Under the pieces are notes generated by a model. It was not told the origin of the DNA. It saw nothing but the letters and a program-made list of their open reading frames with translations, and did not search any database. A stretch of 59,021 nt of DNA from an uncultured virus (IMG/VR IMGVR_UViG_3300021446_000194) (lineage: Varidnaviria; Helvetiavirae; Dividoviricota; Laserviricetes; Halopanivirales): the IMG/VR virus record IMGVR_UViG_3300021446_000194; one strand, given 5' to 3'. A program made the translations under genes and the position numbers. The stretch's first letter is position 1. The number at the start of each line of letters is the position of its first letter. Shown one piece after another: positions 10,035 to 59,021 of this stretch.

Positions 10035-11138
10035 ATGCCTGCACCACTAAGCAGAGACCTTCAGCGGGTGATCGAAGGTCGGAACCCGAAAAAAGTCGAT
10101 GTGCTGATCGAAGCCCTACCCGGACGAGCCTCGCAAATCCGTAGGTACCTGCAAAGCGAGAATGTGCAGTACGCTGAGGCGACGGTGGGCAACAAAACAG
10201 TTTTCGAGGCTACAATCTCGACGGACCGCCTTGACGCAATCCAACGGCAGGAGTCGGTAGGCCTCATTGACCACTCCCCGACTTTCTCAACCCTCGGGGC
10301 TGCTGCCCCAACCAACCCGGGGAGGGAAGCGAATCAGCTAGGTCAGGAAATAAACCGGACGACCCTCTATCAGACAACGAAAGAGATGGGGGTCGAGGAA
10401 GCGTGGGAAGAGATCGGGAGCCGCGGGGAAGGTGCAAAGATCGGTATTGTAGACACACCGGTCGATCAGACCCATGACGCAATTGAATCCTCCATTGCAG
10501 ATGTCGGGGGGCCAGACGAACCGGAAGATCATGGGACGTGGGTCGCCGGTGCAGCCGTCGCAGACGACACAGTTACCGACCGCGGACGGGTCCGTGGCGT
10601 TGCGCCTGAAGCAGACCTGTATCATTACGGCGCGCTCGCAGGGGGGAAGGCATCCACCCTGTCGATTCTCAAAGGCGTCAACTTCTGCATCGAGAACGAC
10701 TGCGACGTGATTAATCTCTCGCTGGGCGGGCCTCACTCAGACGTTCTCCAACGAGCCGTCACCGAAGCGACGAAGCAAGGGGCCCTCGTAGTTAGCTCCG
10801 CAGGCAACTCCGGCCCGGCCTCAAACACCATCTCCTGTCCGGCGCACCACGATGAACCGCTGGCCGTCGGTGCAGAAGAGATCGACGGGTCCGTGGCTGC
10901 ATTTTCTTCCCGGGGCCCCGGATTCAGGGATACTACACAGAAGCCGGAGGTAATGGCCTACGGAGGCGGAGCAAACGTAGGCGACATCAACCTGACCATC
11001 ACCGAAGTCGTCCTCGGTCCAGCCAGAAACAACGGATACCGCTACCTGTTGGGTACCTCGATGGCATCACCCCAGGTTGCGGGGATTGCAGCACTCCGAG
11101 CGGCCGCTGATAAAGACGGAGACACGGGAGACCAATGA
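10035..11138 (+). CDS. Subtilisin-like S8 serine protease with prodomain; lacks the final C-terminal segment
   Basis: IGIVDT (Asp), DHGTWVAG (His), SAGNSG (oxyanion Asn), GTSMASPQVAG (Ser). Confidence 0.95.
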   Translation: MPAPLSRDLQRVIEGRNPKKVDVLIEALPGRASQIRRYLQSENVQYAEATVGNKTVFEATISTDRLDAIQRQESVGLIDHSPTFSTLGAAAPTNPGREANQLGQEINRTTLYQTTKEMGVEEAWEEIGSRGEGAKIGIVDTPVDQTHDAIESSIADVGGPDEPEDHGTWVAGAAVADDTVTDRGRVRGVAPEADLYHYGALAGGKASTLSILKGVNFCIENDCDVINLSLGGPHSDVLQRAVTEATKQGALVVSSAGNSGPASNTISCPAHHDEPLAVGAEEIDGSVAAFSSRGPGFRDTTQKPEVMAYGGGANVGDINLTITEVVLGPARNNGYRYLLGTSMASPQVAGIAALRAAADKDGDTGDQ

Positions 11139-13261: not shown

Positions 13262-13546
13262 ATGAACCCGGACACATCTGATGAATCCAACGAAGCCGAC
13301 CGTCGTAGCGTAGTAACCCAACAATTTCGTGTGAACGACGCCGTTGTTAGTGGCTGTCCTCTCTGTGAAGCAGAGGTTAATGTATGGATACCCTTCTCAA
13401 CAGAGTATTACCCAGAGGGGGATAATCGAGACTACCTCGGCCTGAAACGCGCTCTTTCTGATGAGCACGGACTGTCAGTCTCGGTTACGGAAGTGAAGAA
13501 CCACATCGACGGCCACGTCGGATTTAGTTTTGGGGTGCAGCAATGA
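13262..13546 (+). CDS. Small zinc-finger protein
   Basis: CPLC and HxxxH; ATGA overlap with the next gene; CTTAAAA upstream. Confidence 0.7.
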   Translation: MNPDTSDESNEADRRSVVTQQFRVNDAVVSGCPLCEAEVNVWIPFSTEYYPEGDNRDYLGLKRALSDEHGLSVSVTEVKNHIDGHVGFSFGVQQ

Positions 13547-16338
13547 GCATCTTTGACAAGATCGGCTCTCTTACCGAACGGCTACTTGATCGGGTCGGAC
13601 GAGATTACGGTAACTGTCTCAGTTGCGGAAAGCCGACACGGTCACACAGTGTCGGTGGGGGGGTCGAATGTCACGCCTGCCACACCTCCGACGAGGGGGT
13701 TCTCGTAACCGACGGAGGAGAGAACTTCACCCAGATCGCCGACGATCCCGATGCAACACGGCAAATTCGCGCATTGGCTGACATCCCCGAGTTTATGGGG
13801 ACCGACTTGGAGGACTACGATCTTTTCGAGGGCGACGTAGCCGACGTGCCCGAGATGAACGCCGAGGTGCTGATCCATCAGGGCCTTGCCGAGATCGTAG
13901 AAGACGACGACGATGATGAAGAACTGGGCGATCTCGGACTCGAACAGTTCATGGGTAGCGGACCGGGTGAGGGCGAAACGAATCCAGACCCGCATCCGAC
14001 GAACACCATGAGCCACCAGGGCAATGTGTCCCGTCAGAAGAGCCTGATACCGACTGGACAGCTCAACGCTCAGACCCACACTGAGCGAAGGGTGAACGCC
14101 CGGGAGTACGGACGCAACCCGCCGAGTACCGATGAAGTTCGTGACCGGCTTGAAGACGCGATAATGCGGGTCATGCGCGAGGAAGACAAACGTGTAGTCG
14201 AGTCGCCAACAAGCTCGGGGAAGACCCACACCGTCGCCGGCACGAGGTGGGGGGCCAGAGAGGAAATCACCGGTGGGAACCAAGTCGTTCAACTGATGCC
14301 GACCCGAGACGCGAGAGACGATGCAGCCAATACGGCAGAAGAGTACGGTGGTGACCACCTCCTTCTCTACTCCCGGGACGAGTTATGCCCGGTTGTCGCT
14401 GGTGAAGAAGACCCCGAGGAAGACGAGGACGGCAACATGGAGGGTGGGATCGTCATGGACGGCATACCGGCCTCAGAGTGGATTGAACACGTCTGTAACG
14501 ACAAAGGTGTCCACTTCTCCGTTGCCCACGACTACCTCAACAAGCACAATGACCGAGGCCTTGATCTACCCTGTACCCACGACGGCGACTGCCCCGCGAT
14601 CAAGCAGCACGAGAAACGCCGCGAGGGGGACCACCCGCTAATCATCGCTACGCACAACTTCGCCCACGTCCCAGGGCTACGCCACGGTCGGCACGTCGTG
14701 ATGGACGAGGAACCGGACTTTAGCGTCGATCTCGACACCGACCGTATCCGCCGGGCTGCCAACGCTTTTCTTACCGAAGTCGGGGCTCCGGTCCGGTCGT
14801 GGGAGTCGTTCCTCCGTTTGGCCGACTACGACGGCTTCGGCGACGACGCCTTCCGCGAGGCCGAGGAGACTGAGAAGGCAATACGCAAGACCCCGGATTA
14901 CGAGTGGTTCATCGAGGACGAAGACGCCCATACGATGATCCCCGCGATACTGCGGGCGGTTTGGACAGCCGAGGAACAGCCCAGCGGGCGTATCCGCGGG
15001 AAGACCTACCACGAGCCGCCGCGGCTGGACGCTCACGCAAACCCCGACGATGAGATGTGGAACCGCGAGTGGGTCACTGTCGTGCTCGATCAGCAGAACG
15101 AGGTGCGGAACGTCCGCTCGGTGCCGGACTTTAACTCCTGCAAGTCGCTGGTAGGGCTGGACGCTCACCCGTCAATGCCGCTCTGGCAGGTGAATACGTG
15201 GCCGGACATGCAGAAGCTCCGTATCCTCGACCCGGAAGAACGCCGCCTCTGGCGCGAGCACGAGCGAGGGCTCCGTATCGTGCAAGTCGGCGATGCTACC
15301 CGCCCACTCGGGAAGTCGAATTACTACGACAGCCGGGGGATCACCTGCCTGATGGAGCACCTCCGCGACGAGTACGGCGAGAAGTTCCGTACCGCTATCA
15401 CCACCAAGACGGTGAAGAATATGCTTCGGCAGGACATGGAGATCGCCGGTGTCGAAAGGCCCGAGTTGATGCACTTCGGGAACACGAAGTCGAAGAACGA
15501 CTTTGCCGGCGAAGAAGTCGGGTTGGTCAACGGGTGCCAGGACCCCGGAGACGGGTACGTGCTTGACCTTCTCGCGGAAGTCGGTGCCGACGCCATGCCC
15601 GAGAAGGCAGATGTGTGCTGTGAGAAGTGTGGTGACCGTGAGGAAGCCCCAGAAGAACCGGGTCCGGGCTGTCCGGCCTGTGCCGGCACGGGTATGGCTC
15701 GACAGCACGGTCGCGGGTTCACCGGCGAGGACGCCGAGACCGCTGAGGCGATCCTCAACAGCGTCCGGCAGGCCGAGACGGCGCAGGCGGCTGGCCGCTG
15801 GGCTCGTCGCGCCGATCACTCCGACGATCACGCGACCGTCTTCGTCAGAACGGACGTACTGCCCTCGCACATGGTCGACGTGGTCGTTCCGGGCGTCGTC
15901 TGGACGTTCACGGACAAGCAGCGGGAGGTGGTCGACTCCCTCCGCGAAAGCGTTGAACCGAAGCGTGCACTGAAGGTCGCCGAGGAAGCCGGTGTCTCGA
16001 AGGAGTCAGTACGCCGGACGTTCAACCGGCTCGCTCCGGACGACCCCGACGACACACCTGATGGGGTTGGTTCCCGGGGGTACATCCACGCCTTTGAGAA
16101 GGCTGGGAAACACGGTGCAACGCTGTACGCGGACAACGGAATGCCGAACAACGGTGTTGCTGACATCTCGCTGGAGGAGGAAACCGCCACGAGTCACGTT
16201 TGGGATAACTATACGTGGTCCGTGGCGATCCGCGACCCACACGACCCGCCACAGCATGTCGACAGCACCGTCGAGACTCCACAGCAGGGGGAGTCGCTGG
16301 ACGAGTGGAGTGATGCGGCGACAGAACCAGGCGGGTAA
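13543..16338 (+). CDS. Replication protein: Zn ribbon, GINS B-domain, SF2-like helicase core, C-terminal wHTH (reminiscent of haloarchaeal RepH-type proteins)
   Basis: Walker A SPTSSGKT, Walker B VVMDEEP, motif VI QAAGRWAR, HTH ALKVAEEAGVSKESVRRTF; GINS-B pattern IRALADIPEFMGTDLEDYDL.EGDV..VP..NAEVLI..GLAE. Confidence 0.75.
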   Translation: MSIFDKIGSLTERLLDRVGRDYGNCLSCGKPTRSHSVGGGVECHACHTSDEGVLVTDGGENFTQIADDPDATRQIRALADIPEFMGTDLEDYDLFEGDVADVPEMNAEVLIHQGLAEIVEDDDDDEELGDLGLEQFMGSGPGEGETNPDPHPTNTMSHQGNVSRQKSLIPTGQLNAQTHTERRVNAREYGRNPPSTDEVRDRLEDAIMRVMREEDKRVVESPTSSGKTHTVAGTRWGAREEITGGNQVVQLMPTRDARDDAANTAEEYGGDHLLLYSRDELCPVVAGEEDPEEDEDGNMEGGIVMDGIPASEWIEHVCNDKGVHFSVAHDYLNKHNDRGLDLPCTHDGDCPAIKQHEKRREGDHPLIIATHNFAHVPGLRHGRHVVMDEEPDFSVDLDTDRIRRAANAFLTEVGAPVRSWESFLRLADYDGFGDDAFREAEETEKAIRKTPDYEWFIEDEDAHTMIPAILRAVWTAEEQPSGRIRGKTYHEPPRLDAHANPDDEMWNREWVTVVLDQQNEVRNVRSVPDFNSCKSLVGLDAHPSMPLWQVNTWPDMQKLRILDPEERRLWREHERGLRIVQVGDATRPLGKSNYYDSRGITCLMEHLRDEYGEKFRTAITTKTVKNMLRQDMEIAGVERPELMHFGNTKSKNDFAGEEVGLVNGCQDPGDGYVLDLLAEVGADAMPEKADVCCEKCGDREEAPEEPGPGCPACAGTGMARQHGRGFTGEDAETAEAILNSVRQAETAQAAGRWARRADHSDDHATVFVRTDVLPSHMVDVVVPGVVWTFTDKQREVVDSLRESVEPKRALKVAEEAGVSKESVRRTFNRLAPDDPDDTPDGVGSRGYIHAFEKAGKHGATLYADNGMPNNGVADISLEEETATSHVWDNYTWSVAIRDPHDPPQHVDSTVETPQQGESLDEWSDAATEPGG

Positions 16339-20416: not shown

Positions 20417-20865
20417 AGTCGGCCTGTCGGGGTAGTCCTGCGGACCCATCCCCTCTTTTTGGGTGGGTGCTTTCAGCAGAATAGTTACAACAGAGGCGTT
20501 CTAACCGGACGTATATGTCCACCAGCGACGGCGAGGGGATGTCGATCTCACCGGAAGAGAGGGCTGTAATCCTGCGTATGCGTCAGTCACGGCGAGCGGG
20601 AAACGCAATTTTCAACTACGCGATCAAGTTCTCTGATGACGCAAAGGTCGACCCGGAGGCGTCGCCGTACCGAAGGTAACCGTCAGTCGTCCTGGTCGTC
20701 TCCGAGTGCTTCTTGGATCGCCTCGGCTGCCTCCATGCAGCCGCCCCCGTCCCCCAGCCCTTCGAGGTGGCTCCGGTCAATGTGCTCCGTTTCAGGTTCA
20801 TCAGACATGATGTATTCTGGTTGGGCGGCCCACGTTTTTAGGGTTCCCCCAATATACGGCTTTAC

Positions 20866-23800
20866 ATGGTCTTTCCCACGTTTGAAGTGAAGGTGTCAAA
20901 CCAAGTGCTCCGCCCCACCGTCTCCGCTGCCGATCAGATAACCGACGAAGCGGTGTACGAGGTGTCCGAGAAGGTTCTGAAGACGGAAGTTGTCGACGCC
21001 GGCCAGAACACGTACGCGGAGACGGTCACGGAGTTGGGGGCCGAGGAGGAAGTCAATGTTGAGATGCCGGGGCAGTTCGGAGTGTCAACCGCCAGTCTGA
21101 GCAGTGCACTGAATGACCTGAGCAAGAGACAGGATGTAATCCTGTCCGGGGAGGCGGTGAGCGCAGAGATTGAGGTGGTCGACCCTCAGAGCGGTGATGT
21201 TGTGTCATCCCTCGGGATGAAAGACCCCGAAGAGTTGCGTGACACGCCCGAGCCCCCGCAGATCAACTGGGACGCGGAAGTCGAAATGAACGGTGGCGAC
21301 TTCCGTGAGGTGCACCTCGCGGCGAAGAAGGTCTCTAACAATCTTACTCTGGGGGTCGCGGACAACCCCGAACGGGGAGAGACTGGTAAGGCTCTGCTGG
21401 CCTACGCTGACGGGGACACAGACGACATCGGATTCTACCCGGACTTCGAGTTTACCGGGATCGGGTCCCCGCCTGGGGACGTTGGTGCCATCTACAGCCT
21501 GGACCTTCTTGGGGACCTGAGAAATTCGATTGATAAGCCTTCATCGACGGCTCTACGGCTGCGTTTCAGTGGTGTTGAGTTTCCTGTTGAGGCGAGCTTT
21601 AGTATTGGCCCCGAATCTGAGACTAGCGTCCGATACATCGTCAGTCCGAGACTCAAGCAAACCGACTGGGAGCTGACCGATGACCTCGGTGCTATCGACC
21701 CCTCAAGCTACGGGTTTTCCGAGGTCGGGTTCCGGCTCGGCACCGACGGTGAGCATGGCCGCGCCTTGTTCGATCTGATGGGCATGTACGCCGACGAGTA
21801 CCGGATCATCGCCCGCGAGACGGGGATCGAGAGTGCGTCTATAGACCCAGCTAACGTCGGGCTGATCTCGACACAGGCCGACCCCAGCTACTTCGACATC
21901 TACGAGGAAGTGGCTGGGTTCCCCCAGCAGCAGGTTGGTATTGCGTCACGGAACATCGAGGAGTTGCTGAAGCGGTTTAACAAGAGGGACGACTTCGAGC
22001 TTGCGGTGTCGTCCAATCGTCGGTACGTGGCGCTCCAGCACCCATTGTTCACCGCCCGCCTCGCAACAATAGACCCGGATGCAATCAGGGCCGACCCCAG
22101 CCTGCCGGATCTGGAACTTACCTCTGAGGCGCAGGTGCCCTCGGACGAGTTGGTTAATACGCTGTCCCCGATGGTCGGCAAGGATAGAGTTGCTGGGTAC
22201 ATCGTCGGGAACGGTGAAGCGTGGTTGGTCGCCGATGCTTTCAGCGGTGGGTCCGCGTCCCAATTGCAGACAAGCTCAGTTAACGGGCGCGCGTTCACGG
22301 CGCTGTCGGGTGAATATCTTGGGAAGATGATCGACGCCATTCCAGGCATTCCCGGTGGTTCCGTGAGAATGAGAGCCGGAGTGGAGCTTCCCGTTGCGTT
22401 CGAGTACCAGACCGGCGGCGGCGATCTCACGGCTGTCTCCACAATTGCCCCACGCCAAATAACGGACGACTTCCCCGAGAAGATCCGCGATATGAAGGAG
22501 GCGATCCCAAACGGTCGGGATGTCCTGAACTGGATAGACCCGGCGAACCCCGACGACTGGGACAACCCTGATTTCTCGGTGTCCGCATTCTCGGGCGCCA
22601 AGATAGAGCCGCTTTCGGAGCGCGTTCGGGCTGAGCGTCTCCAGTCCTACCCCGTGGAGCTTGATGTCGAGTTCACCCATTTCGGGGAGTCCGACGAGGC
22701 GTGGTCCTACGAGGTGGATGAAATGGAAGTCACCGGGAACAGAGGAAGGAAGCGAGACACCACAGTCTACCTCGAACTGGAAGACGGCGAAGACTTCGGC
22801 GCTTCCGACAACGCCATCCGGAGTGCGTTGGAGGATGTGGGCGACGCCTTCGACTTCAGCCTGATCGACACGGGTGAGCGCGTCGCGCAGGCGACGTTCA
22901 GCTCTGAAGACGAGTACACAGTCGAGCTACTGAACGTCCAGCCAAATACCAATCACGCGATCACCACCTCCGACGGGTACCGGATTCGCAGTCTCACCCG
23001 GGACGACAACGAGTACATCTACACCAGCGCCCCGGACGAAACGCCCGCAGAGGGGCGGGTCGCCTTTCGGGCCGTCGAGGACCCGCAGGGGAGCACGTTC
23101 GGATTCTATCTCGACATGATCGACAACGACGATGTTGAGGCGCGAGCGAGCGTTACTGGGCTGCCTTCTATTAGCCAAGCCTACGGGGCTATGGTAGAGT
23201 GGATTAGGAACCACACGTTAGAAGATGCCGTCGAGACCGCTGGCGGCGAAGTGACCGTCTCCGACCGCGAGGTGCGCGACCAGCTATCGGAGTTGGCTGA
23301 CACGTACGTCGACTACAACATGGAGGAGCGGCCGGGGAGTGGCGTCGATGAAGGGGAGTTCTATGCAGCCCTCGTCGGGAAACTTAACGTCCTTCCTGAC
23401 GCTTCCCACCGGGCAGACATCAGCGTCCGAACCCCGACTGAGCAGCGCCCTACATACAAGGTCGACTGGACGGTATCCATCATGCCAAGTCGCCTGGGTG
23501 GGCTGGTAGACAGTCAGCACCTCGGCGATAATGACATTGGGGAGACCGACGACAAGGCTGACGTTCCCGGGATGGTGGAGGAGGCGATCCGTACCCTCAG
23601 CGGCTACAGTCCATACCTCGCTCGACGCGACAACGAGGATGTCCCGCCTCAGAACGCGCGTAACCTCCCGGGATTCCGCGAGAACGACATCCGGAGCTAC
23701 GTCGACGCATCGCTCCCGGTGCCGAAAGAAGAACTTGCTTCTGAGATCGCGGCGGACGCCGACGGTCCGCCGGTCGAACTAGAGGAGGTGTCGCAGGTGG

Positions 23801-26800
23801 GCCCATCCCGCGCGGAGGTGTTGGAAGAAGACGGTGTGTTCGACGTGATTGACGTGGCGGTCCTCCTGTCGTCCACCAAGACGAGCTTCCTCTCTACGAC
23901 GCTGGTCAATCTTCCCGAGACACCACGGGAAAGCATACAGGAGGCAGCAGCAAAAGTGTGGGCTCGGTACATCTGGCCGAAGCGTGAGCTACCCGACGGG
24001 TATGATCGTATCGGGTCAGGCGACGCGGAGCCCCCAGAAACCGACAGCGATCCCGTGCTGGAGGAAGATACGTCTCCGGAACCGCCGGACATCGACGATC
24101 TCCCCTCTGCGTTCGGCGACTGGGAAGCGACGACGATGGACGACGCAAGCCCGGTGTACGCCCGCGAGTTTGAGATCAACGGCGTCGAGGTGCAGTCTCA
24201 GGTGTCTGTTCAGCCAGCCAACGATGGTGAGACGTGGGAGGTTATCCACAGCATTGCCACGTTCGGCGATGATGGATCTGAGGTAAACTCGTTCACCGTC
24301 GACACAGGGTACGAGTCGGTGGAGATGGCTGTGCCCTTCCTCGCTACCTACCTTGGGGACGAGGCTCTCGAAGACATCGCCGAGAAGATGCCCTCGGTTG
24401 AGGCTCCCCCGGACGATGAAGATGAAGAGGAGGCTGCCATGGAACCCGACTCTGACCCTGACCCGTCTGAAACGCCTGAGCAGCCCCCGGAGCCGTCTGA
24501 CGGCGGCGGAGACGGCGGCGACAATGTGTTTCCCATCGAGGCTGAAGTGACGCTGGTTTTGGATGACGGCGAGGCGGTGGTCGACGTGGAGGCGTCGAAC
24601 CTCGACGCCGTCGATGAGGAGACGTTGGGCGACTTCTTCGACCTCATGGAGATCGTCGCCGACCCCACGTTCCGGGACCCACCGGATTTCATCGCGCGCG
24701 CTGTGTTCGAGTCGCCGATGGAGTACGACTTCGTGGAGTACAACGAAGCGACGGAAGGGCTAGACCCCGAAGACTTCGACCCGCCCGGTGGGTTCGAGAC
24801 CACTACCGACGAGGGCGTGACCAAGCCCGACATGGAGCCGCTGGAGACGTGGCGTGCTCCGGGGGGTGAGCAGGTAGAGATATATCGAACTACGGTTTAT
24901 ATCAACCCGCCCCTCAGCGACTTCACTGTCGAGGCCGACATCCCGCCGGAGACGGCGCAAGAAGTGGTCCGGAACATCGAGGGGTACACGCTGCTCAACG
25001 AGCGAGAAGAGCAAGAGCCCTCGCAACCGCAGGACCAGGACTCCCAGGAACCCCCGGAACCGTCACGCAGTGAAGGCACCGACGAGTCAGAGACTGAGGA
25101 AAGACCTACCCCGAAGGCGGACGAACCGGATGTTACTGTGAGCGAACGCGAAGACGAAAAGTCCGTTCGAGGCGTCCCGGTGAGCACGATCCCGGATGTG
25201 CTCGAACCCGTCCTTCCGGGCGTCGAGGTTGAGGTGGACGTGACAGGGAACGTCGTGGAGCTTCGGGAGAACGTTGTCCCCGACGCGCAGGACCTCTTCG
25301 ACGGAGAGCCTGCGGTCGTAACCGCCCAGACAGGCGAGGGCAGCGACCTCTTCGAGCAGGCTGTGGTAGCGTACAACGCTGCTGTCGATACTGATCCCCT
25401 CGACGTGGAGGCGGTCAACGACGCAAGACGCAACGCTGATCTCGACATCCCCCTGCTCGATGAATCCCCGGCGGTGAGTGAAAGCGAAGAGCCGGAGCCC
25501 GAACCTGTTGGCGGCGAAGACCTGCCGGTCACTGACCAGGATCGGGTTGAGCTACAGGAACTTGCTGAGGTCCTTAACAACGAGCAGATTCCGGGAGAAA
25601 CCCGGGCGGAGGAGGCCAGCGAGACCGTCGACAGCATCTTGCAGTCGGCATATCCCAACACCATCGAAGACTCGCGTGTTGATCTGGACTTCGGCCGTGG
25701 CGGCGGTCTTCGTGCGTTGGTTCTGACAGCCCAACTTACCTCTCAGAAGCGGGACGACATCGCTGGTAGGTCTATCTGGGCTGACCCCGGTCCGCAGGGA
25801 GGGACTGTCGTCCAGTTCCGGATACTCGGCGATCCCAACAACCCCGTCTCTCTGATCCAGTCTTTCGAGAAGGTGATGGACGGGCTGGATGAGACACGGC
25901 CAGGGAACCAGCGCCTCAAAGACAAGCTCGACCACATCGAGGACTTCACCACGTTCAAGTTCGTCCGAGGGAACGTCGATCTTGACAAGTCGTTCATCAG
26001 CGCCCCGGAAATGCGGGCGCTACTCCCCGAACTGGCTGAAGAGATACAGAGGAGTTTCGACGCCCACCTCCAGAACATCGACGCTGCGTACTACGCTGCT
26101 CAGAAGGTACACGAGGTAGACACGGGCGGAGACATCCGCGGCCGTTTGGAGCAGTCCGTGGGCGACTTCCCATCTCCCGGTTCGCGTGCAGAGATGCTCG
26201 AAAAGGCGTTGGGCGCGCTGGACTCTGGCGACTTCGAGCCCGGTGTGTTCTTCCGTCGGTACTACGACTCCATCGCCCGTGACACGCCTTCGGATATCTG
26301 GGAGGAGCGCGGTATCGTCACCGACGACGATGAAGAGGAAGAGTCCGAACCGGAGCCCGAACCGGAGTCGGAACCAGAACCGGACTCCACTGAACGCGAA
26401 CCTGGACCCGAACCCGAGTCCGAGCCGTCCCCGGGCGGTGAAGAGCCGACCCAGCAGGGTGTCGAGGAGAAGGATACCTCATTCTCCGAGATGTCTGAGG
26501 TGGTGACAGACCTCTCTGCTGTGGAAGAAGAGTTGGAGGAAGTGGTCGGCAACACCAGACTCGGCGACATCGGCGACCCCACAGTCGCCGACGAAGCACG
26601 GGAGGCGCTGACCGAAGTGCAGGAGATTAAGGGTGTGTTGAGTGAGAAGTCGCTGGGGGAGGTCCAGCCCTCGGATATCACGCAAGCCCGCTTCGCCGTC
26701 GATATCGGACAGGCTGCTGTCGAGAACATGGAGACCGCCGCCGAAGAGTCAGCGGACCCCGGGCCTGAACCCCAGCCTGAGCCCACTCCCGAGCCCCAAC

Positions 26801-27327
26801 CCGAGCCCACTTCGGAGCCCCAACCCGAGCCTGTTGGCGAGTTCAACACCTTCGAGCAGGCCGTCGAGGAACGCGGGCCTATCCAAGTGGAGGTGTTCGC
26901 GCTGGAGCGCGGCTTCGGTAACGTATTCGGGCTTCGGCTCCCCGACCAGCCGGAACTGACGCAGAAGGAGGGGGAGGGCGTCGCCGATCAGGTTGCCCAA
27001 GAGCTGTTCAGCGAAGTCGACCCCGACGAGTACGCCCCAGGCGAGGCTATCGGAACGGCTGTCGTCTCACCTGACCGCGTCGAGAGTATCGAAGTGGGCG
27101 GCGTCACGGACGACCAGCCAGCCCAACCTGCGACTGATCCCGAACCGCAGTCCGGTGGGTCTGCCGCGGAGCAGATGGGCCGGATGGATACCGGCGACGT
27201 GGAGATTGATGAGCTAACCATCGAGGATCTGGACATCGAGGAGGTGCGGGTCGGTGATGTCACCGCGGAGAACGTCAACACCAAAGACGTGCGGGACATT
27301 CGGTCCGACATCGAAGAAGACATCTGA
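20866..27327 (+). CDS. 2153-aa acidic protein with two tandem N-terminal PCNA domains, a central HhH motif and Pro/Glu linkers
   Basis: Domain 1: DPEELRDTPEPP, ADGDTDD, YSLDLL, EFPV, YIVSPR. Domain 2: IDPANVG, IDPDAIRADPSLPDLEL, EYLGKMIDAIP, GVELPV, IAPR. HhH: LEEVSQVGPSRAEVLEEDG. Confidence 0.85.
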   Translation: MVFPTFEVKVSNQVLRPTVSAADQITDEAVYEVSEKVLKTEVVDAGQNTYAETVTELGAEEEVNVEMPGQFGVSTASLSSALNDLSKRQDVILSGEAVSAEIEVVDPQSGDVVSSLGMKDPEELRDTPEPPQINWDAEVEMNGGDFREVHLAAKKVSNNLTLGVADNPERGETGKALLAYADGDTDDIGFYPDFEFTGIGSPPGDVGAIYSLDLLGDLRNSIDKPSSTALRLRFSGVEFPVEASFSIGPESETSVRYIVSPRLKQTDWELTDDLGAIDPSSYGFSEVGFRLGTDGEHGRALFDLMGMYADEYRIIARETGIESASIDPANVGLISTQADPSYFDIYEEVAGFPQQQVGIASRNIEELLKRFNKRDDFELAVSSNRRYVALQHPLFTARLATIDPDAIRADPSLPDLELTSEAQVPSDELVNTLSPMVGKDRVAGYIVGNGEAWLVADAFSGGSASQLQTSSVNGRAFTALSGEYLGKMIDAIPGIPGGSVRMRAGVELPVAFEYQTGGGDLTAVSTIAPRQITDDFPEKIRDMKEAIPNGRDVLNWIDPANPDDWDNPDFSVSAFSGAKIEPLSERVRAERLQSYPVELDVEFTHFGESDEAWSYEVDEMEVTGNRGRKRDTTVYLELEDGEDFGASDNAIRSALEDVGDAFDFSLIDTGERVAQATFSSEDEYTVELLNVQPNTNHAITTSDGYRIRSLTRDDNEYIYTSAPDETPAEGRVAFRAVEDPQGSTFGFYLDMIDNDDVEARASVTGLPSISQAYGAMVEWIRNHTLEDAVETAGGEVTVSDREVRDQLSELADTYVDYNMEERPGSGVDEGEFYAALVGKLNVLPDASHRADISVRTPTEQRPTYKVDWTVSIMPSRLGGLVDSQHLGDNDIGETDDKADVPGMVEEAIRTLSGYSPYLARRDNEDVPPQNARNLPGFRENDIRSYVDASLPVPKEELASEIAADADGPPVELEEVSQVGPSRAEVLEEDGVFDVIDVAVLLSSTKTSFLSTTLVNLPETPRESIQEAAAKVWARYIWPKRELPDGYDRIGSGDAEPPETDSDPVLEEDTSPEPPDIDDLPSAFGDWEATTMDDASPVYAREFEINGVEVQSQVSVQPANDGETWEVIHSIATFGDDGSEVNSFTVDTGYESVEMAVPFLATYLGDEALEDIAEKMPSVEAPPDDEDEEEAAMEPDSDPDPSETPEQPPEPSDGGGDGGDNVFPIEAEVTLVLDDGEAVVDVEASNLDAVDEETLGDFFDLMEIVADPTFRDPPDFIARAVFESPMEYDFVEYNEATEGLDPEDFDPPGGFETTTDEGVTKPDMEPLETWRAPGGEQVEIYRTTVYINPPLSDFTVEADIPPETAQEVVRNIEGYTLLNEREEQEPSQPQDQDSQEPPEPSRSEGTDESETEERPTPKADEPDVTVSEREDEKSVRGVPVSTIPDVLEPVLPGVEVEVDVTGNVVELRENVVPDAQDLFDGEPAVVTAQTGEGSDLFEQAVVAYNAAVDTDPLDVEAVNDARRNADLDIPLLDESPAVSESEEPEPEPVGGEDLPVTDQDRVELQELAEVLNNEQIPGETRAEEASETVDSILQSAYPNTIEDSRVDLDFGRGGGLRALVLTAQLTSQKRDDIAGRSIWADPGPQGGTVVQFRILGDPNNPVSLIQSFEKVMDGLDETRPGNQRLKDKLDHIEDFTTFKFVRGNVDLDKSFISAPEMRALLPELAEEIQRSFDAHLQNIDAAYYAAQKVHEVDTGGDIRGRLEQSVGDFPSPGSRAEMLEKALGALDSGDFEPGVFFRRYYDSIARDTPSDIWEERGIVTDDDEEEESEPEPEPESEPEPDSTEREPGPEPESEPSPGGEEPTQQGVEEKDTSFSEMSEVVTDLSAVEEELEEVVGNTRLGDIGDPTVADEAREALTEVQEIKGVLSEKSLGEVQPSDITQARFAVDIGQAAVENMETAAEESADPGPEPQPEPTPEPQPEPTSEPQPEPVGEFNTFEQAVEERGPIQVEVFALERGFGNVFGLRLPDQPELTQKEGEGVADQVAQELFSEVDPDEYAPGEAIGTAVVSPDRVESIEVGGVTDDQPAQPATDPEPQSGGSAAEQMGRMDTGDVEIDELTIEDLDIEEVRVGDVTAENVNTKDVRDIRSDIEEDI
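26764..26833 (+). repeat. Tandem coding repeat (PEPQPEPT)n
   Basis: About 24-nt units such as GAGCCCACTCCCGAGCCCCAACCC. Confidence 0.8.
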
Positions 27328-34176: not shown

Positions 34177-34752
34177 ATGCCAGAATACGGGATCTACCTC
34201 GATGTAGACAGTGACGGCGTGTACCTATCCGCGCCTGACCGCTACACGGGGATAACAGCAGCACAGCACGCGACCTACGTCCTCTCCGAGATCGTGGGCA
34301 GCCGCCACGGGGGAAACGCGCCCTACGCGCGGATGCTCATGTCGGCATCCCAGTGGCTCCACGACGCCAGGCAGTACGACTCCGCCCGGGGGATCGTCTA
34401 CTCGGATGAGGGGAGTGACGAACACCCACCGGCTCGGGGGCAGGTGGCGGACGTGTTCCTGATCCTAGCGGGAGCACACGCTGCCGACACTTTCGGACGG
34501 ACTGGGACAAAAAAGATGGAGGAGGGTGTTTCCTTCGCCAACGATCTGGCCGAACGCCTTGGCGACGAGATCGGGACGACGCCGATCAACCACGGACCAG
34601 CGGTTCAAGAGCCGGAGCGTATACACCACTATAAAGGCCCGTCATCGTTCATGCAGCAGCGGTTCTGTACCGACTGTGGCGGCGAGGCGACGGGTGAGCT
34701 CCCCGAGGGGGGAAAGTGCCCGTTCTGCGAGGAGAGTGGGACGCTGATCTGA
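34177..34752 (+). CDS. Hypothetical protein with C-terminal Zn ribbon
   Basis: CTDC...CPFC. Confidence 0.75.
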   Translation: MPEYGIYLDVDSDGVYLSAPDRYTGITAAQHATYVLSEIVGSRHGGNAPYARMLMSASQWLHDARQYDSARGIVYSDEGSDEHPPARGQVADVFLILAGAHAADTFGRTGTKKMEEGVSFANDLAERLGDEIGTTPINHGPAVQEPERIHHYKGPSSFMQQRFCTDCGGEATGELPEGGKCPFCEESGTLI

Positions 34753-34802
34753 CCACCCGAGGATCACACCTTGGGAGGTTCTATCCGCCACGCGGCGGAG
34801 GT

Positions 34803-35828
34803 ATGACCATGGAATGGAACCCGTCCGCTAAGTACGAGTTGTACCTGCATTGGATAGACGACATCCTCACGGACGAGAAGCGTACCGTTCGTGACGTTTA
34901 CTACGCACTCGAATCCCGGGGCTTCCCGGACGAGTGCGCGGAGCAGGGGTACGACTTCAAGTATCGGTTTGTCAAGAGAGCGGTCAAGAAAGGCAGGAGG
35001 GCGGGGTATATCGACCCGTCGATGATCGTTGACACATCCCGGCGGGCCGTCGAAATCCCCAGCGAGGGGTACGACGACCCAGTGGAGTTCGCCGGGCGAA
35101 TAATGTCGACGGTAGCGAGCGGCTACAATGAGAACTTCTGGCGGGACCAGGACCATTACGTCGAGGTATGGCTCGAAAAGCAGTCGTTGGCGTCGGTGTT
35201 TGCGCCGATCTGCGCCGAACATAACGTCCGACTTGAAGCCACCCGCGGCGACTGGTCCGACAGCAAGGTCTATGAGGCAGCACACCGACTGCTTGACAAG
35301 CTGAACGCGGGCAAGCAGGTGCGCGTGGTCTACTGGGGGGACTTCAACCCCAGCGGGTTCCACGCACCCGTCAGCGTCCAACAGACGCTCAAGCACTACG
35401 GCCTCGATCTGGGGCCGCGGCAGCAGGACGAGCCCCCGTCGCGGTATTTCGACATCTGGCCGCAGAGTGAGCCGTCGTCGTGGAGCGGGCACGAAGGCGC
35501 CGACATCATGTTCGAGCGCGCGGGGCTAAACCTCGAACACATCAAGCGGTACAGTCTGCCTGAAAACCCCAACCCTTCGTCTTCGGACAAGGACCGCCAG
35601 CTACGCGAGCGGTTCCGGGAGCACGTTTCGGAGGGGCGAGACGTGAACGTCGAGCTTAACGCCCTCAAGGAGTTCCACCGCGACGATCTCGAAGCAGAGA
35701 TCAGGAATGGGATAACGCAGTATATCGACACCACGCAGCGCGCGACCACCGAAGAGCGTGTGGGCGAGCGCCAAGAGGCGATTCAGGAGGCGTTCAACGT
35801 GGACAGAGACGCGCTGAGCAGCCTGTAG
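34803..35828 (+). CDS. Topoisomerase VI A/Spo11-like protein (Mini-A type; WHD plus TOPRIM)
   Basis: TVRDVYY (catalytic Tyr context), VEVWLEK, YWGDFNPSG, VELNAL. Confidence 0.8.
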   Translation: MTMEWNPSAKYELYLHWIDDILTDEKRTVRDVYYALESRGFPDECAEQGYDFKYRFVKRAVKKGRRAGYIDPSMIVDTSRRAVEIPSEGYDDPVEFAGRIMSTVASGYNENFWRDQDHYVEVWLEKQSLASVFAPICAEHNVRLEATRGDWSDSKVYEAAHRLLDKLNAGKQVRVVYWGDFNPSGFHAPVSVQQTLKHYGLDLGPRQQDEPPSRYFDIWPQSEPSSWSGHEGADIMFERAGLNLEHIKRYSLPENPNPSSSDKDRQLRERFREHVSEGRDVNVELNALKEFHRDDLEAEIRNGITQYIDTTQRATTEERVGERQEAIQEAFNVDRDALSSL

Positions 35829-36565: not shown

Positions 36566-37996
36566 ATGGCACCCCAGCAGGAGACTACCAAAGCCGACGA
36601 CGAGACGGACAGTACGCTCCGATTTGCCGGCCTCACCCGCTTCGTGGAGGGGCGTGTTCCCGAGGAGGTATTCGGACACGGCTCCTCGATGAAATGGTGG
36701 GCTAAGGAGTGGAACCGTGAGGAAATGAAGGCCGACGAGGACGATAACGTCGACCTGCCGGACAGCGGGTTCAACTCCGTGATCGACCAACTCCCCCGGG
36801 CGACGACGGCGGAGGTCCAATGGGTCCACCCGCGCACGGGCGAGACATACAAGACCGCCAAGCACAACGCCGTTATCGACCCGGACCGCGCCGAACAGAT
36901 CAACGGACCCTTCGGCTCCTACGCCGAGGTGCTCCAGCACTACGCCGATAAGGATCTTACCGACGCGGAGGCCGCGGAGGCCGTCGAGGAAACGGGGTTC
37001 GAGGACGCCGTCGACAAGTACGTGTCGGACGGCGAAACCCGTGGCCGGGCAAAGACAACGAGTCCTGGCGACGACGCCCTCTACCACATCCCTACTGACG
37101 ACTACGAGGTGGTCAACCCGTCAGAGGTGCTCCGACCGCTGGCCGAGGTACTCGGCGATCAGGGGCTCGGTGAAGATGTCTTCGGCGAGGCACGCCTCTA
37201 CCGCGCCGGCGGGAAGGTGTCGCTGGATGTGTTCTTCAACGGGAAGACCGTCGAGTGGCCCGGAAAGGACGACGACCGTAAGCCGGTCGTGGTCGGTATG
37301 CAGATCGACTACGACCACTTTGGCGGGACGAGCGTCAACATCCAGGGCATGGGGATGGACTGGGAGTGTACGAACGCGCTCCGCTCCATCACCGGTACCG
37401 AGACGGTGAAACACGCTGGCGACATCGACAGCCGCGTCGAGTGGAAAGAACTGTACGAGGACCTGCTCGAATCGCTGGACCTGAAGACCGACCAACTCTC
37501 GCAGGTGATCCACGAGGCCAGCAACGAGTTTCTGGACCTCGGCGACCTGCCGGACGATCTGACCGACGTGCTTGACCACCGCGAGGTCGACACGATCTGG
37601 CAGGCGCTCTACAAGGCCGCCGGGCTCCCGGGTTACCTCGCCAAGCACGCAGGGGACAACCTCAGTGCCGAGGCGGGCGACCCCTACGAGCCCTCATGGT
37701 GGGAGATCCACCGCGGAGCCACCTACGCGATCTCGCATTACAGCCGGTCAGAGACGCACGCGGGTAGCAGCATCGACCAGCAGAACCGGACAGCCAACGA
37801 CATGCTGCTCAACCCCGAGCAGATCATCGAGAACGTCGACGTGGCCTACCACGAAAAGCAGGAAGACACCACCCTCTCCGAAGAGGGCGGTGGCGCGGCA
37901 AGCCTCCAGCGCGTGCAGGAAGGGCTCGCCGAGAAGCGCGAGGAGTACGAGGAGCGACAGGACATGATCGAGCAGATTCAGGCCCAGGCCGAGTGA
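36566..37996 (+). CDS. DUF932-like mobile-element protein
   Basis: IPTDDYEVVNP...GGKV...DHFGGTS...CTNAL...KH pattern; strongly biased codons. Confidence 0.55.
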   Translation: MAPQQETTKADDETDSTLRFAGLTRFVEGRVPEEVFGHGSSMKWWAKEWNREEMKADEDDNVDLPDSGFNSVIDQLPRATTAEVQWVHPRTGETYKTAKHNAVIDPDRAEQINGPFGSYAEVLQHYADKDLTDAEAAEAVEETGFEDAVDKYVSDGETRGRAKTTSPGDDALYHIPTDDYEVVNPSEVLRPLAEVLGDQGLGEDVFGEARLYRAGGKVSLDVFFNGKTVEWPGKDDDRKPVVVGMQIDYDHFGGTSVNIQGMGMDWECTNALRSITGTETVKHAGDIDSRVEWKELYEDLLESLDLKTDQLSQVIHEASNEFLDLGDLPDDLTDVLDHREVDTIWQALYKAAGLPGYLAKHAGDNLSAEAGDPYEPSWWEIHRGATYAISHYSRSETHAGSSIDQQNRTANDMLLNPEQIIENVDVAYHEKQEDTTLSEEGGGAASLQRVQEGLAEKREEYEERQDMIEQIQAQAE

Positions 37997-41087: not shown

Positions 41088-41299
41088 GCGTCGAGGACCC
41101 ACGCCTGTGCCCCGAGTGCCGCGAACCACGGCAGGGGCTTGTCTGTCAATGTGGGTGCGATCTCCGCGAGGTGGATGTCGTTTACTGCGCGGAGTGTTCA
41201 AAGCCGGCGACGAAAGAAGCGGCTGACCGCCAGACGTGGCAGGGGTCGTCTGTGGCACACGCCTCGAAGAGCGGATACTTCTGTCCAAACTGTCAGTAG
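41084..41299 (+). CDS. Cys-rich zinc-finger protein
   Basis: CPEC, CQC, CAEC and CPNC. Confidence 0.65.
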   Translation: MSVEDPRLCPECREPRQGLVCQCGCDLREVDVVYCAECSKPATKEAADRQTWQGSSVAHASKSGYFCPNCQ

Positions 41300-41348
41300 A
41301 TACTGTCGGAGCGCCTTTCACTTGGCGCCCCGTCACTTGGATTCAGCG

Positions 41349-42287
41349 ATGGCTGATCGGTATGACTATCGGATTGACCGGGATGTGGCCGACACGATCA
41401 AACAGCGAGTGAATGATCCGTCGGTCAACGCGCTTGACTGGGCGTGGCAGTACGTCGCACCGACGATGTCAGAGCGACGCCGCGCCCGGACGGCTACGCT
41501 ACTCTCTTTGGCGTCCGAACCCGACAGGAATGGCGTCCGGGGACGGATTCATGCCTTGTACCCCGGACCGGGAGGAACCGGAAAGACGGTGCTTCGAGAC
41601 TGGGTGAAAAATACCTTCGACTGCGCCTACGGCGTTGGTCCCGGATCGTCGGACACCGGGCTGCGCTACAACGCGAACGTGAACAAACCCGGAAAACTCC
41701 ACATGGCCGACGGGGGAGTGCTCTGTGTTGAGGAGTTCGACAAGTTCGACCGCGACGAATGGGAAGCAACCTACGAGTCCATGTCGGACGGCTACTTCGA
41801 GGTGGATAAAGGCGGCGTCGACGCCGAGATCGACGCCGAGACGCGGATCATCGCGGTGTGCAACGAGACACGGCCGTTTTCCCAACCACTACTCTCCCGA
41901 TTCGACTTCATCGTGGAGATGGACGAGTACGATGCAGCGGAGACCATCACCGTCGGCGAGGACATCACTGACCAGTTCATTTCGGCGTTCATCAAAGACG
42001 AAGACGGTGCCGCCCGGCCGTTCCTGCCGCAATACCTCTCCTACATACAGGGGTTCCGGCCGGGGCTCACGGATGACTTCGCCGGGCAGGTGAAGCAGTG
42101 TCTCCGACGGCTGGTCCACGAGGAGGACATGGTCGGGGACATCCGCGGGAAGGAGGCGTACCTACGTATCGCATACACGGCTGCGAAGCTGGATATGCGG
42201 GACGTAGAGGTGGAGGACTGGGTCCGAGCAGTCGATCTCGTCCATCCAGACATCGACGCCGCGGGGCTCTACTCAGACTTCCTTTGA
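41349..42287 (+). CDS. MCM-family AAA+ ATPase lacking the N-terminal domain
   Basis: RGRIHALYPGPGGTGKT, GKLHMADGGVLCVEEFDK, LLSRFDF, sensor-2 helix IRGKEAYLRIA. Confidence 0.85.
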   Translation: MADRYDYRIDRDVADTIKQRVNDPSVNALDWAWQYVAPTMSERRRARTATLLSLASEPDRNGVRGRIHALYPGPGGTGKTVLRDWVKNTFDCAYGVGPGSSDTGLRYNANVNKPGKLHMADGGVLCVEEFDKFDRDEWEATYESMSDGYFEVDKGGVDAEIDAETRIIAVCNETRPFSQPLLSRFDFIVEMDEYDAAETITVGEDITDQFISAFIKDEDGAARPFLPQYLSYIQGFRPGLTDDFAGQVKQCLRRLVHEEDMVGDIRGKEAYLRIAYTAAKLDMRDVEVEDWVRAVDLVHPDIDAAGLYSDFL

Positions 42288-43162: not shown

Positions 43163-43396
43163 ATGACAGAAGACATTGACTCTACAGAAGACAAACACAC
43201 GGTGGGAGGTTCTCACCGTGCCTGGACACAGGCAGAAGCAACAGTGGAGGCTATCCCAGACGACGGTGACGGCGTCAATCTGTACGTCCGCGACCTGTCG
43301 ATGCTTGACGGCCCGTATACATGTGACTGCGGAAAGACGTTTGAGGACCGCAAAGGCGTCCGAGCACATCTCGACGAGGTGAACGATGGCGCGTGA
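43163..43396 (+). CDS. Small zinc-finger protein
   Basis: YTCDCGKTF...H. Confidence 0.65.
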   Translation: MTEDIDSTEDKHTVGGSHRAWTQAEATVEAIPDDGDGVNLYVRDLSMLDGPYTCDCGKTFEDRKGVRAHLDEVNDGA

Positions 43397-44300
43397 AGGG
43401 GATACCCCCAAGACTTCGCAGGAGAGTGAGGTAGAGACGGTGGGGCTTGGTCAGTCCACGGACGGAAGTTACCGATACGAACAGGTCCCGATCCATCTGT
43501 GCCAAGGGTGCGGGTCCAGCTTCTATCCGGGCGATGAGGTCGTTACGCTGTCTGACGGTTTCATCGAAACCGACGAATCGCATAGCCCCGACAATATCCG
43601 ATTTTTCCACGGAGACTGCTGGAAAAACAGCCGTTACATGGACACGGGAAGTGATTGCGACAGAGGTGTGCGACAGATGGGGTCGCTCGGAGCTGCGGAG
43701 GACACCGACCGCGACGACTGGAACGACCTCGAACTATCGTACCACAGTGTGCGTCCGAACAAGTGGACGTTTCAGTCCAAGAAGATCCGCCGATGGGTAG
43801 AGAGCCGGCTTGAGGGCCGCGTCTTGAACGCTTGTGCCGGAAAGACGAAACTCACCAGCGACCACGAAATCGTCCGGAACGACCTCGATGAGAACCGGGA
43901 CGCAGATCTCCACGTCGACGTGTGTGAGCTCGCGGACCACCTCGAAAGTGATTCCTTCAATACAATCGTCTATGACCCGCCGTTCTCACAGAACCAAGCA
44001 ACACAGACCTACGACATCGAAGACGGTGAGGCGGTCGTTGCGGGTAGTGACGCTATTGCGAAACGGCAGTTCGACAAACTGCTCGCGCCGGGCGGCCTCG
44101 TGGTCCAGTTCGGCTACACCACGACCTGTATGCCGACCTCGCTCGGGTACGAGCGGTTAGAGGTAGGCGTCTGGAATACCCTTGGTCGGTCCAACGATTA
44201 CCTCTCGGTAGTCGACAAAAAGCCAGGTGAAACGGAGGTCCAATCCCGGTGGTTCAGCACTGAAACGTCTGATACAACGGGTACGGAAGGATCTGACTGA
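43386..44300 (+). CDS. Putative amino-DNA methyltransferase with N-terminal Zn finger
   Basis: RVLNACAG (SAM-binding) and YDPPF (catalytic); CQGC...FHGDC. Confidence 0.75.
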   Translation: MAREGDTPKTSQESEVETVGLGQSTDGSYRYEQVPIHLCQGCGSSFYPGDEVVTLSDGFIETDESHSPDNIRFFHGDCWKNSRYMDTGSDCDRGVRQMGSLGAAEDTDRDDWNDLELSYHSVRPNKWTFQSKKIRRWVESRLEGRVLNACAGKTKLTSDHEIVRNDLDENRDADLHVDVCELADHLESDSFNTIVYDPPFSQNQATQTYDIEDGEAVVAGSDAIAKRQFDKLLAPGGLVVQFGYTTTCMPTSLGYERLEVGVWNTLGRSNDYLSVVDKKPGETEVQSRWFSTETSDTTGTEGSD

Positions 44301-58966: not shown

Positions 58967-59021
58967 AAAAAAAAAATCTGGGGTGAGTGGGGCTACCGTA
59001 TTACGGCTACGGAGCACAGGT
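58967..59021. repeat. Terminal direct repeat (identical to 1-55)
   Basis: Exact identity to the window start. Confidence 0.95.

Follow-up and report, generated by a model that had tools for sequence, protein, structure and literature searches.

Sliding clamps of the PCNA (proliferating cell nuclear antigen) type are normally stand-alone proteins of about 250 amino acids (aa) that assemble into a closed trimeric ring. In Sulfolobus the ring is a heterotrimer assembled stepwise, with a PCNA1-PCNA2 heterodimer that awaits PCNA3. Among the herpesviruses, UL44 of human cytomegalovirus (HCMV) and UL42 of herpes simplex virus (HSV) are processivity factors with the PCNA fold that bind DNA without a closed ring. 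UL44 forms an open, four-domain C-clamp that binds double-stranded DNA through basic residues and without a clamp loader, which provides a precedent for a two-thirds ring. Here we describe a covalent pair of PCNA units, resembling the Sulfolobus heterodimer, at the head of a giant acidic protein (P0001) of 2153 aa. It is encoded in a stretch of 59,021 nt (the window, with positions numbered from the first letter of the whole stretch) from a halite metagenome, recorded as an uncultured virus (IMG/VR IMGVR_UViG_3300021446_000194), which is a haloarchaeal mobile element and either a virus or a plasmid. UL44 differs from P0001 in being a head-to-head homodimer of single units without giant cargo; it was not among the structural matches listed for the PCNA pair, although no dedicated comparison with it was made.

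The layout of two PCNA units in one viral protein is already known, as a domain annotation of 2016 that had no follow-up. VP1 of the alphasphaerolipovirus HCIV-1 (Haloarcula californiae icosahedral virus 1), a verified virion protein of 1608 aa, carries two PCNA domains (cd00577, aa 5-223 and 376-601), and the same report describes no recognisable DNA polymerase for this virus and proposes use of the host replication machinery (Demina et al. 2016, PMC4958249). An earlier note on this DNA, made from the letters alone, had held that no architecture of this kind was described, which was wrong because the HCIV-1 pair had been published in that year. A literature phrase search gave no further account of a fused PCNA pair in viral proteins, the HCIV-1 paper itself wording it otherwise, and 'VP1' is absent as a whole word from the HCIV-1 cryo-electron microscopy (cryo-EM) paper (PMC6414509). 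Among phage records, the 1608-aa protein is a single-piece match to aa 136-535 of P0001 (tblastn), with 27% identity and an E value of 8e-32 over this segment (BLASTP). Both proteins are giant and acidic, with two tandem PCNA units at the N-terminus. Their second units fall in the same clade of the tree described below, and helix-hairpin-helix (HhH) motifs lie further downstream in VP1, as seen in its 69%-identical relative P0016, as does a putative HhH-like domain in P0001. They differ in that the first unit of HCIV-1 VP1 contains an insertion of about 100 aa, and in that, of the two, only VP1 has been shown in virions.

Two other groups of proteins are relevant to the comparison. VP1 of HHIV-2 and of SH1 is reported to inhibit a BREX system of type V, and is described as plentiful in virions, dispensable for particle formation, and not seen in cryo-EM maps; it may be internal and DNA-associated (preprint 10.64898/2026.04.28.721311). 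Dissociation work cited in a cryo-EM paper on SH1 (PMC6441041) placed SH1 VP1 with the lipid vesicle or lipid core. Like P0001, these VP1s are giant, acidic, mosaic proteins of haloarchaeal mobile elements; unlike P0001 they have no detectable PCNA unit, and anti-BREX activity has been shown only for them. Polyvalent proteins of phages and conjugative elements (Iyer et al. 2017, PMC5512222) share with P0001 a very large size, an origin in mobile elements, and a build of modules that relatives have in shuffled form. Delivery with the DNA and early action in the recipient are proposed for them; in that survey the examples above 1000 aa are nearly all bacterial, a paucity in archaea is described, and PCNA or sliding clamps have no occurrence (PMC5512222). 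P0001 differs from them in that no typical catalytic domain was found (Pfam, NCBIfam).

The gene and the parts of its PCNA pair are as follows.

20866..27327, plus strand: open reading frame (ORF) of the acidic giant protein P0001, 2153 aa, ATG start, stop codon included (translation; at the N-terminus it lines up with the start of PCNA and of the relatives)
20878..21660, plus strand: PCNA unit 1, aa 5-265, both domains (PCNA profile, superposition on 3ifv_C, best NF002222 stretch at aa 6-265)
21661..21729, plus strand: linker between the PCNA units, aa 266-288, of low confidence (pLDDT <50 at aa 265-272; short helix at aa 271-276)
21730..22464, plus strand: PCNA unit 2, aa 289-533, both domains (PCNA profile, superposition on 1rwz, match to 3hi8)

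The proposal that two tandem PCNA domains head the protein, each following the PCNA pattern from end to end, is confirmed by profile, fold model, and motifs. A profile of 250 columns, built from 80 stand-alone PCNAs picked by similarity to the query, matched aa 5-265 over columns 3-249 (i-E 1e-33) and aa 301-530 over columns 16-246 (i-E 1.1e-32). It matched nothing else among 715 six-frame ORFs, and there is accordingly no sign of a third PCNA unit in the window. All of the motifs originally quoted were located, including DPANVG at aa 327-332, ADGDTDD at aa 181-187, SGEYLGKMIDAIP at aa 481-493, VEFPV, VELPV, SPR at aa 260-262, and APR at aa 528-530. The interdomain loop motif of halophile-type PCNAs, IDPDxIRxEPxxPxLxL, is canonical in unit 2 (IDPDAIRADPSLPDLEL, aa 402-418 of P0001) and present in diverged form in unit 1 (KDPEELRDTPEPPQINWDA / KDPEELRDTPEPPQINW). 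The copies are indeed strongly diverged from each other, with 24% identity between them (E 3e-5), and the composition of P0001 is strongly acidic, like that of proteins from halophilic archaea.

Sequence matches in curated and public collections go far past what chance would give. Haloferax volcanii PCNA 3hi8 was matched with a whole-sequence E value of 1.7e-16 (phmmer, PDB sequences), in which the N-terminal half of unit 2 aligned with 3hi8 residues 14-131 (i-E 1.7e-10) and the C-terminal half of unit 1 gave a weaker partial match (i-E 0.0039). The NCBIfam model NF002222, 'DNA polymerase sliding clamp', matched two stretches (E 1.6e-45) and was the best of NF002218-NF002222, but its score of 155.6 bits lies below the curated cut-off of 207, so that, unlike archaeal PCNAs, P0001 does not reach the family cut-off. 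The Pfam PCNA families (PF00705/PF02747) had no match in P0001 at E<=1, and PF00705 was matched at E<=0.01 in 18 of the 21 relatives scanned. Stand-alone PCNAs of haloviruses and haloarchaeal plasmids were found with either unit (tblastn). No nucleotide match of the gene was found among phages (megablast), and a tblastn search of PLSDB plasmids gave only stand-alone PCNAs, with no double-PCNA giant among the matches listed.

An AlphaFold2 model of aa 1-545, built with a 20-sequence family alignment, has a pLDDT of 86.8 and a pTM of 0.82, and is poor only at linker residues 265-272 and in the tail. Both units adopt the clamp fold in this model and are joined by a linker of about 25 aa. For unit 1 (aa 6-262), superposition on 3ifv_C, a Haloferax PCNA, gives Z 29.1 and a root-mean-square deviation (rmsd) of 1.6 Å over 237 residues; for unit 2 (aa 288-533), superposition on Archaeoglobus PCNA 1rwz gives Z 28.8 and an rmsd of 2.4 Å over 239 residues. 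Each unit has the same two-domain fold as archaeal PCNAs, with Z of 26-29 for those of Haloferax volcanii (3ifv/3hi8) and Sulfolobus PCNA1-2-3 (2ix2/2hik). Foldseek ranked 3k4x_A highest for the whole model (TMq 0.74, normalised to the model; 571 columns; rmsd 5.9 Å). This structure is a PCNA trimer in a single chain, on DNA, and because the best match is a trimer of this type, units 1 and 2 are placed as ring neighbours. As modelled, they pack head to tail in the manner of adjacent ring subunits, with contacts like those between subunits of archaeal PCNA rings, and supply four of six domains. The covalent two-thirds clamp that the earlier note had envisaged is thereby borne out as predicted geometry. 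The modelled arc is incomplete, with two free edges and room for exactly one more subunit; P0001 differs from archaeal PCNAs in joining two units in one 2153-aa chain instead of free subunits of about 250 aa. Prediction of a complex between aa 1-540 and a cellular Halorubrum PCNA scored 0.00 in both runs, which were made without controls, and is uninformative either way.

This architecture marks a wider family. An exhaustive phmmer search of 1.84 billion cluster representatives returned 417 proteins at E<=0.001, in which the top ranks are large proteins of 487-3662 aa with both copies matched in one stretch and the remainder are PCNAs of about 250 aa. Some 20 further giant double-PCNA proteins came from this search, and the contigs that carry the relatives, 8-66 kb long, stem from JGI, ENA, NCBI, and Logan assemblies. 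Each of the 23 large proteins examined, P0001 and 22 others, has two units homologous to PCNA, and a third was seen in none of them; 16 have both units complete, and the other 7 have a unit that is interrupted by an insertion, truncated, or detected only in part. A FastTree tree was made from the 250 columns of the profile with 120 of 128 sequences, after 8 had been dropped for >40% gaps (seven insertion-bearing first units, including that of HCIV-1, and one truncated second unit). The retained first units all group in one clade (17/17, support 0.983), and the second units all group in another (23/23, support 0.96), which includes the second unit of HCIV-1. The separate clades indicate that the PCNA pair arose once and that its order has been kept; on these alignments, the single origin may have been a duplication, or else two different PCNA genes may have fused.

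The closest relative of P0001 is P0004. A second subgroup, consisting of HCIV-1 VP1, P0014, P0015, P0016, P0018, P0019, P0023, P0033, and P0034, has only the PCNA pair in common with P0001 (BLASTP), except that P0014 and P0023 are also matched at the C-terminal modules of P0001. The order of domains in P0018 (2247 aa, from an ENA metagenome) is DUF6610, HHH_2, the PCNA pair at aa 374-904, DUF6884, a KOW-like domain, and HHH_5; its pair is not N-terminal, which is unusual among the relatives.

In the PCNA fold, four inward-facing helices line the DNA channel. To compare them, first units, second units, and stand-alone PCNAs were placed on one profile and net charge was taken as mean K+R minus D+E, the helices being assigned from the AlphaFold2 model and general PCNA architecture and the charges counted from sequence, not as electrostatics on coordinates. 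The values are as follows.

80 stand-alone halophile-type PCNAs, all four channel helices: -0.56 to -1.36
First units, aA1: +1.28
First units, aA2: +1.91
First units, aB2: +0.23
Second units, N-domain, aB1: +1.87
Second units, C-domain, aA2: -1.55 (acidic)
Second units, C-domain, aB2: -2.05 (acidic)

Across the family, Lys and Arg are therefore enriched in the channel helices of three of the four domains, which are more basic than those of halophile-type PCNAs, and the fourth domain is acidic. For the inner-ring charge, which the earlier note had proposed to inspect, the counts lean basic in three domains family-wide and acidic in the C-domain of unit 2. In P0001 itself, the K/R counts per channel helix are 1, 2, 3, and 2 in unit 1 and 0, 5, 0, and 1 in unit 2. 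The presence of basic channel helices in an otherwise very acidic protein argues, at the level of sequence, for contact with DNA.

The interdomain connecting loop is the main docking site of PCNA partners, and its mean top-residue frequency is 0.55 in unit 1 and 0.62 in unit 2, compared with 0.69 in stand-alone PCNAs. For the edge strands, the corresponding values are 0.44 for bD2 of unit 1 and 0.46 for bI1 of unit 2, and 0.33 for bI1 of unit 1 and 0.29 for bD2 of unit 2. This fits an inner contact between units 1 and 2 with freer outer edges, as a weak hint given that the difference is small. A pattern scan of 11 family proteins found no canonical PIP box.

The pair is followed by about 1600 aa in which conserved and shuffled parts can be distinguished.

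22501..24045, plus strand: family-conserved middle region, aa 546-1060, beta-sheet-plus-helix domains (BLASTP, AlphaFold2)
23728..23985, plus strand: weakly supported helical domain of HhH-like type, aa ~955-1040, last part of the middle region (VIA, Pfam in relatives)
25519..26322, plus strand: shuffled module, aa ~1552-1819, in 6 relatives (BLASTP: P0023, E 1.4e-32; P0004, P0014, P0156, P0012, P0011)
26851..27324, plus strand: C-terminal module, aa ~1996-2153, in 2 relatives (BLASTP: P0023, E 3e-15; P0014, E 6e-11)

The PCNA pair and the 500-aa middle region, from aa 1 to about 1060, are common to 13 relatives, with BLASTP alignments that start at about aa 1-12 and end at aa 1046-1103. The AlphaFold2 model of aa 540-1075 (pLDDT 80, pTM 0.65) has sheets packed on long helices. 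Foldseek found nothing for it at E<=0.001, and the VIA-wide best Z of 8.1, to actin-capping protein alpha, is within the range that the tool calls common. No PCNA or beta clamp stands among the 50 VIA matches listed for this region, which may yet contain a cryptic third clamp-like unit. Towards its end, aa ~955-1040 form a putative, weakly supported HhH-type DNA-binding domain: VIA matches to BAF (Z 5.1), Dbh/Dpo4 (Z 4.8), and the Rad51 N-terminal domain (Z 4.5, rmsd 2.7 Å) are all below significance, and Pfam HHH-type matches stand at the equivalent place in P0005 (946-961), P0013 (953-979), and P0002 (957-991). NCBIfam RadA N-terminal regions also occur in relatives, elsewhere along the chain. 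The modules of P0001, at aa 1-1060, 1220-1348 (common to one relative), 1552-1819, and 1996-2153, are each common to different subsets of relatives (BLASTP) and are separated by acidic Pro/Glu-rich linkers. Comparison of aa 546-2153 with PDB sequences gave nothing at E<0.1, and aa 1525-1830 had no usable match in the ESM Atlas.

Through such modules the family is connected to the anti-BREX proteins. A segment of HHIV-2 VP1 (aa 1315-1450, about 136 aa) is 64% identical to aa 1045-1181 of P0004; the C-terminal region of SH1 and HHIV-2 VP1 is common to HCIV-1 VP1 and P0016, and other modules of both are common to the double-PCNA protein P0018. The preprint says that VP1 lacks homology to known proteins outside PH1 (10.64898/2026.04.28.721311), a statement contradicted by the finding of VP1 modules in P0004, P0016, and P0018. 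Direct similarity of P0001 to the VP1s of SH1 and HHIV-2 was not found at an E limit of 0.1. Module sharing nevertheless ties these VP1s into a wider mosaic family.

Beyond the 2016 annotation, what is new here is the breadth of the family, its invariant design of two units, their modelled placement as ring neighbours, and the basic helices of the channel, together with the conserved middle region, the mosaic ties to anti-BREX VP1s, and the finding of such a protein in a circular element that lacks sphaerolipovirus capsid genes. A covalent pair that is unchanged across about 20 giants of haloarchaeal mobile elements points towards the two-thirds clamp as a functional unit in its own right, and suggests a testable way for such proteins to stay with viral DNA.

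The reading that we tentatively prefer, at a little short of an even chance, is that the PCNA pair is a head that tethers a giant mosaic protein to DNA, so that the protein accompanies the DNA of its element. Contact with double-stranded DNA would be made by the Lys/Arg-enriched channel helices of the four-domain arc, which would be an open C-shaped clamp or would be closed to a ring by a third subunit; the HhH-like domain could assist in binding. Some 1600 aa of cargo would in this way be kept on the DNA of the element itself. If the analogy with alphasphaerolipovirus VP1 holds, the protein may be carried and delivered with that DNA, and it might then have an early role in the newly entered cell, such as countering host defences. 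In favour of this reading are the PCNA fold and ring-like placement of both units, the fixed two-unit design, the charge of the channel helices, the HhH-type matches, the ties to virion and anti-BREX VP1s, the mosaic build of P0001, and the mobile-element setting.

Several observations weigh against DNA tethering and delivery of this kind. Binding to DNA, association with particles, and anti-defence activity are properties that we infer for P0001. Two channel helices, aA2 and aB2 in the C-domain of the second units, are acidic, and the conserved interdomain loops suit replication-type recruitment equally well. The resemblance to HCIV-1 VP1 stops at the PCNA pair, with no alignment past aa 535, and P0001 is without the C-terminal VP1 region common to HCIV-1 (aa 1398-1608), SH1, PH1, and HHIV-2. 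No PCNA unit was detected in SH1 or HHIV-2 VP1 (best whole-sequence E 0.02), and therefore the functional link from the anti-BREX VP1s to P0001 is a chain of mosaic homologies. Within the cargo, no enzymatic or anti-defence domain was recognised with Pfam, PHROGs, NCBIfam, or PDB sequences, libraries that may lack such families. The element itself may have no particle. Unlike HCIV-1 it lacks the sphaerolipovirus ATPase and capsid genes in a tblastn search with 47 HCIV-1 proteins, the ORFs scanned gave no recognisable terminase, portal, or capsid family, and its 931-aa replication-type protein (13543-16338) has its best homologue on a Haladaptatus plasmid, where it is annotated as a winged-helix regulator (43% identity). 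The element may therefore be a plasmid.

A stronger version of the tethering reading, which we regard as rather unlikely, is that the pair, as a C-clamp or a ring closed by host PCNA, would lock a giant mosaic effector onto the DNA of the element. Such a protein could be packaged or transferred along with the genome without any capsid-specific signal and arrive in the next cell already bound to it, and might slide along the incoming DNA so as to seed replication or to weaken defences of the BREX or restriction type. If this were true, the double-PCNA giants, including HCIV-1 VP1, would form an archaeal class of DNA-tethered polyvalent proteins, with the PCNA pair as their delivery device.

The main rival to DNA tethering, and one that is not exclusive with it, is a role in replication, which we judge to be a serious contender even if unlikely on balance. 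The pair would here be a covalent counterpart of PCNA1-PCNA2 that takes up one host PCNA, and the resulting ring, loaded by the host loader, would recruit polymerase, Fen1, and ligase for the element. The predicted ring-neighbour geometry leaves space for exactly one further subunit, the relatives always have two units and never three, with no third unit in the window, and heterotrimeric PCNAs exist in Sulfolobus (PDB titles). The interdomain loops are nearly as conserved as those of stand-alone PCNAs, although no canonical PIP box was found in the proteins scanned, the outer edge strands are less conserved than the presumed inner pair (a weak hint), and the NCBIfam score is under the curated sliding-clamp cut-off. 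Many haloviruses and haloarchaeal plasmids encode stand-alone PCNAs, and the element has an MCM-like helicase and no recognised DNA polymerase; for HCIV-1, too, the 2016 report finds no recognisable polymerase and proposes host machinery (PMC4958249). On the other hand, 1600 aa of acidic, shuffled cargo would serve no obvious need in replication, and HCIV-1 VP1 sits in the virion (PMC4958249).

It is distinctly unlikely that the arc serves as a decoy for host take-over, capturing host PCNA monomers or PIP-box proteins so as to withdraw or redirect them. PCNA inhibitors encoded by mobile genetic elements are known in Thermococcales, the interdomain loops are conserved in both units, and the modelled arc is incomplete with two free edges. 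A decoy has no direct support, however; the Lys/Arg enrichment of the channel helices would be superfluous to it, and the adjoining HhH-like domain suggests DNA.

We consider it very unlikely that the PCNA fold is a rigid block of a particle or large assembly without a DNA role. That VP1 is a virion protein in HCIV-1 (PMC4958249), and that P0001 scores under the curated Pfam and NCBIfam clamp cut-offs, would suit such a structural scaffold, which the earlier note had offered as its alternative. The basic channel helices, the conserved interdomain loops, and the ring-neighbour geometry are instead kept features of a working clamp, and make a mere scaffold less likely. HHIV-2 VP1 is dispensable for particles (10.64898/2026.04.28.721311), although this is indirect evidence as that protein is without PCNA units.

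Finally, there is next to no chance that the ORF is an artefact of chimeric assembly, or of separate genes fused through sequencing error, because contigs cross its junctions and the two-unit layout recurs in HCIV-1, a cultured virus, and in 22 other large proteins from data of JGI, ENA, NCBI, and Logan. The window comes from a metagenome assembly of low depth, about 6-8 in run X1, which may be the source sample, and the gene is partly uncovered in runs X2-X4; the stretch was found in four DNA-type runs of one halite-metagenome study, with no RNA run listed. One Logan contig of X1 nevertheless covers 20522-22861 with zero differences across both junctions, and in a second sample the X3 contigs 21372-21671 and 21655-21827 bridge the linker between the units. 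The recurrence of the layout in other proteins is stronger evidence against an artefact than the contig coverage. A short X1 joint from 21817 to 24567 was set aside, as it consists of 21-27 aligned letters with mismatches and seems to belong to an unrelated contig.

The window begins and ends with the same 55 bases (1-55 and 58967-59021), and the contig can therefore be closed to a circle of about 58,966 bp; the element could be circular or terminally redundant. Taken as a circle, it differs from HCIV-1 in this respect and in being twice as large. Of 47 HCIV-1 proteins compared with the window (tblastn), only gp8, VP1 (through the PCNA pair), gp35, and gp41 had a match, and no tRNA genes were found in the window. 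The other genes that could be assigned are listed here.

10035-11138, plus strand: subtilisin-like protease (subtilase)
13543-16338, plus strand: 931-aa protein with a Gins51 C-terminal domain (E 1.7e-7) and a weak DEAD-box match, phrog_27506
34716-35828, plus strand: homologue, at 61% identity, of HCIV-1 gp35 (annotated 'DNA topoisomerase'); phrog_6247, E 1.3e-62
36566-37996, plus strand: 476-aa protein, phrog_13083, E 2.4e-70
41139-42287, plus strand: MCM-like AAA+ helicase core without the usual N-terminal domain
43386-44300, plus strand: DNA methyltransferase, phrog_11619
50829-51806, minus strand: tyrosine integrase
53398-54717, minus strand: 439-aa protein, PHROG 1645 'virion structural protein' (E 2.6e-14), weakly similar to HGTV-1 gene 10

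The 931-aa protein is possibly the replication initiator or helicase of the element, judging by its domain matches, and had no match in phages. The gp35 homologue, for which there was no Pfam or NCBIfam family, is by far the closest tie of the element to a sphaerolipovirus. Tailed haloviruses of the HSTV-2/HRTV-7 group share the 476-aa protein at about 34% identity and have it annotated as hypothetical. The nearest ESM Atlas clusters of the 439-aa protein are viral (Uroviricota, score 0.96), and it is the only hint of a particle gene in the window. The helicase, methyltransferase, integrase, and protease genes are typical cargo of mobile elements, and a GT2 glycosyltransferase is also encoded. 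The minus-strand ORFs that neighbour the gene of the 439-aa protein (46.7-59 kb and 0.2-4 kb) encode acidic products, and their Ig-, CARDB-, or propeller-like matches are weak.

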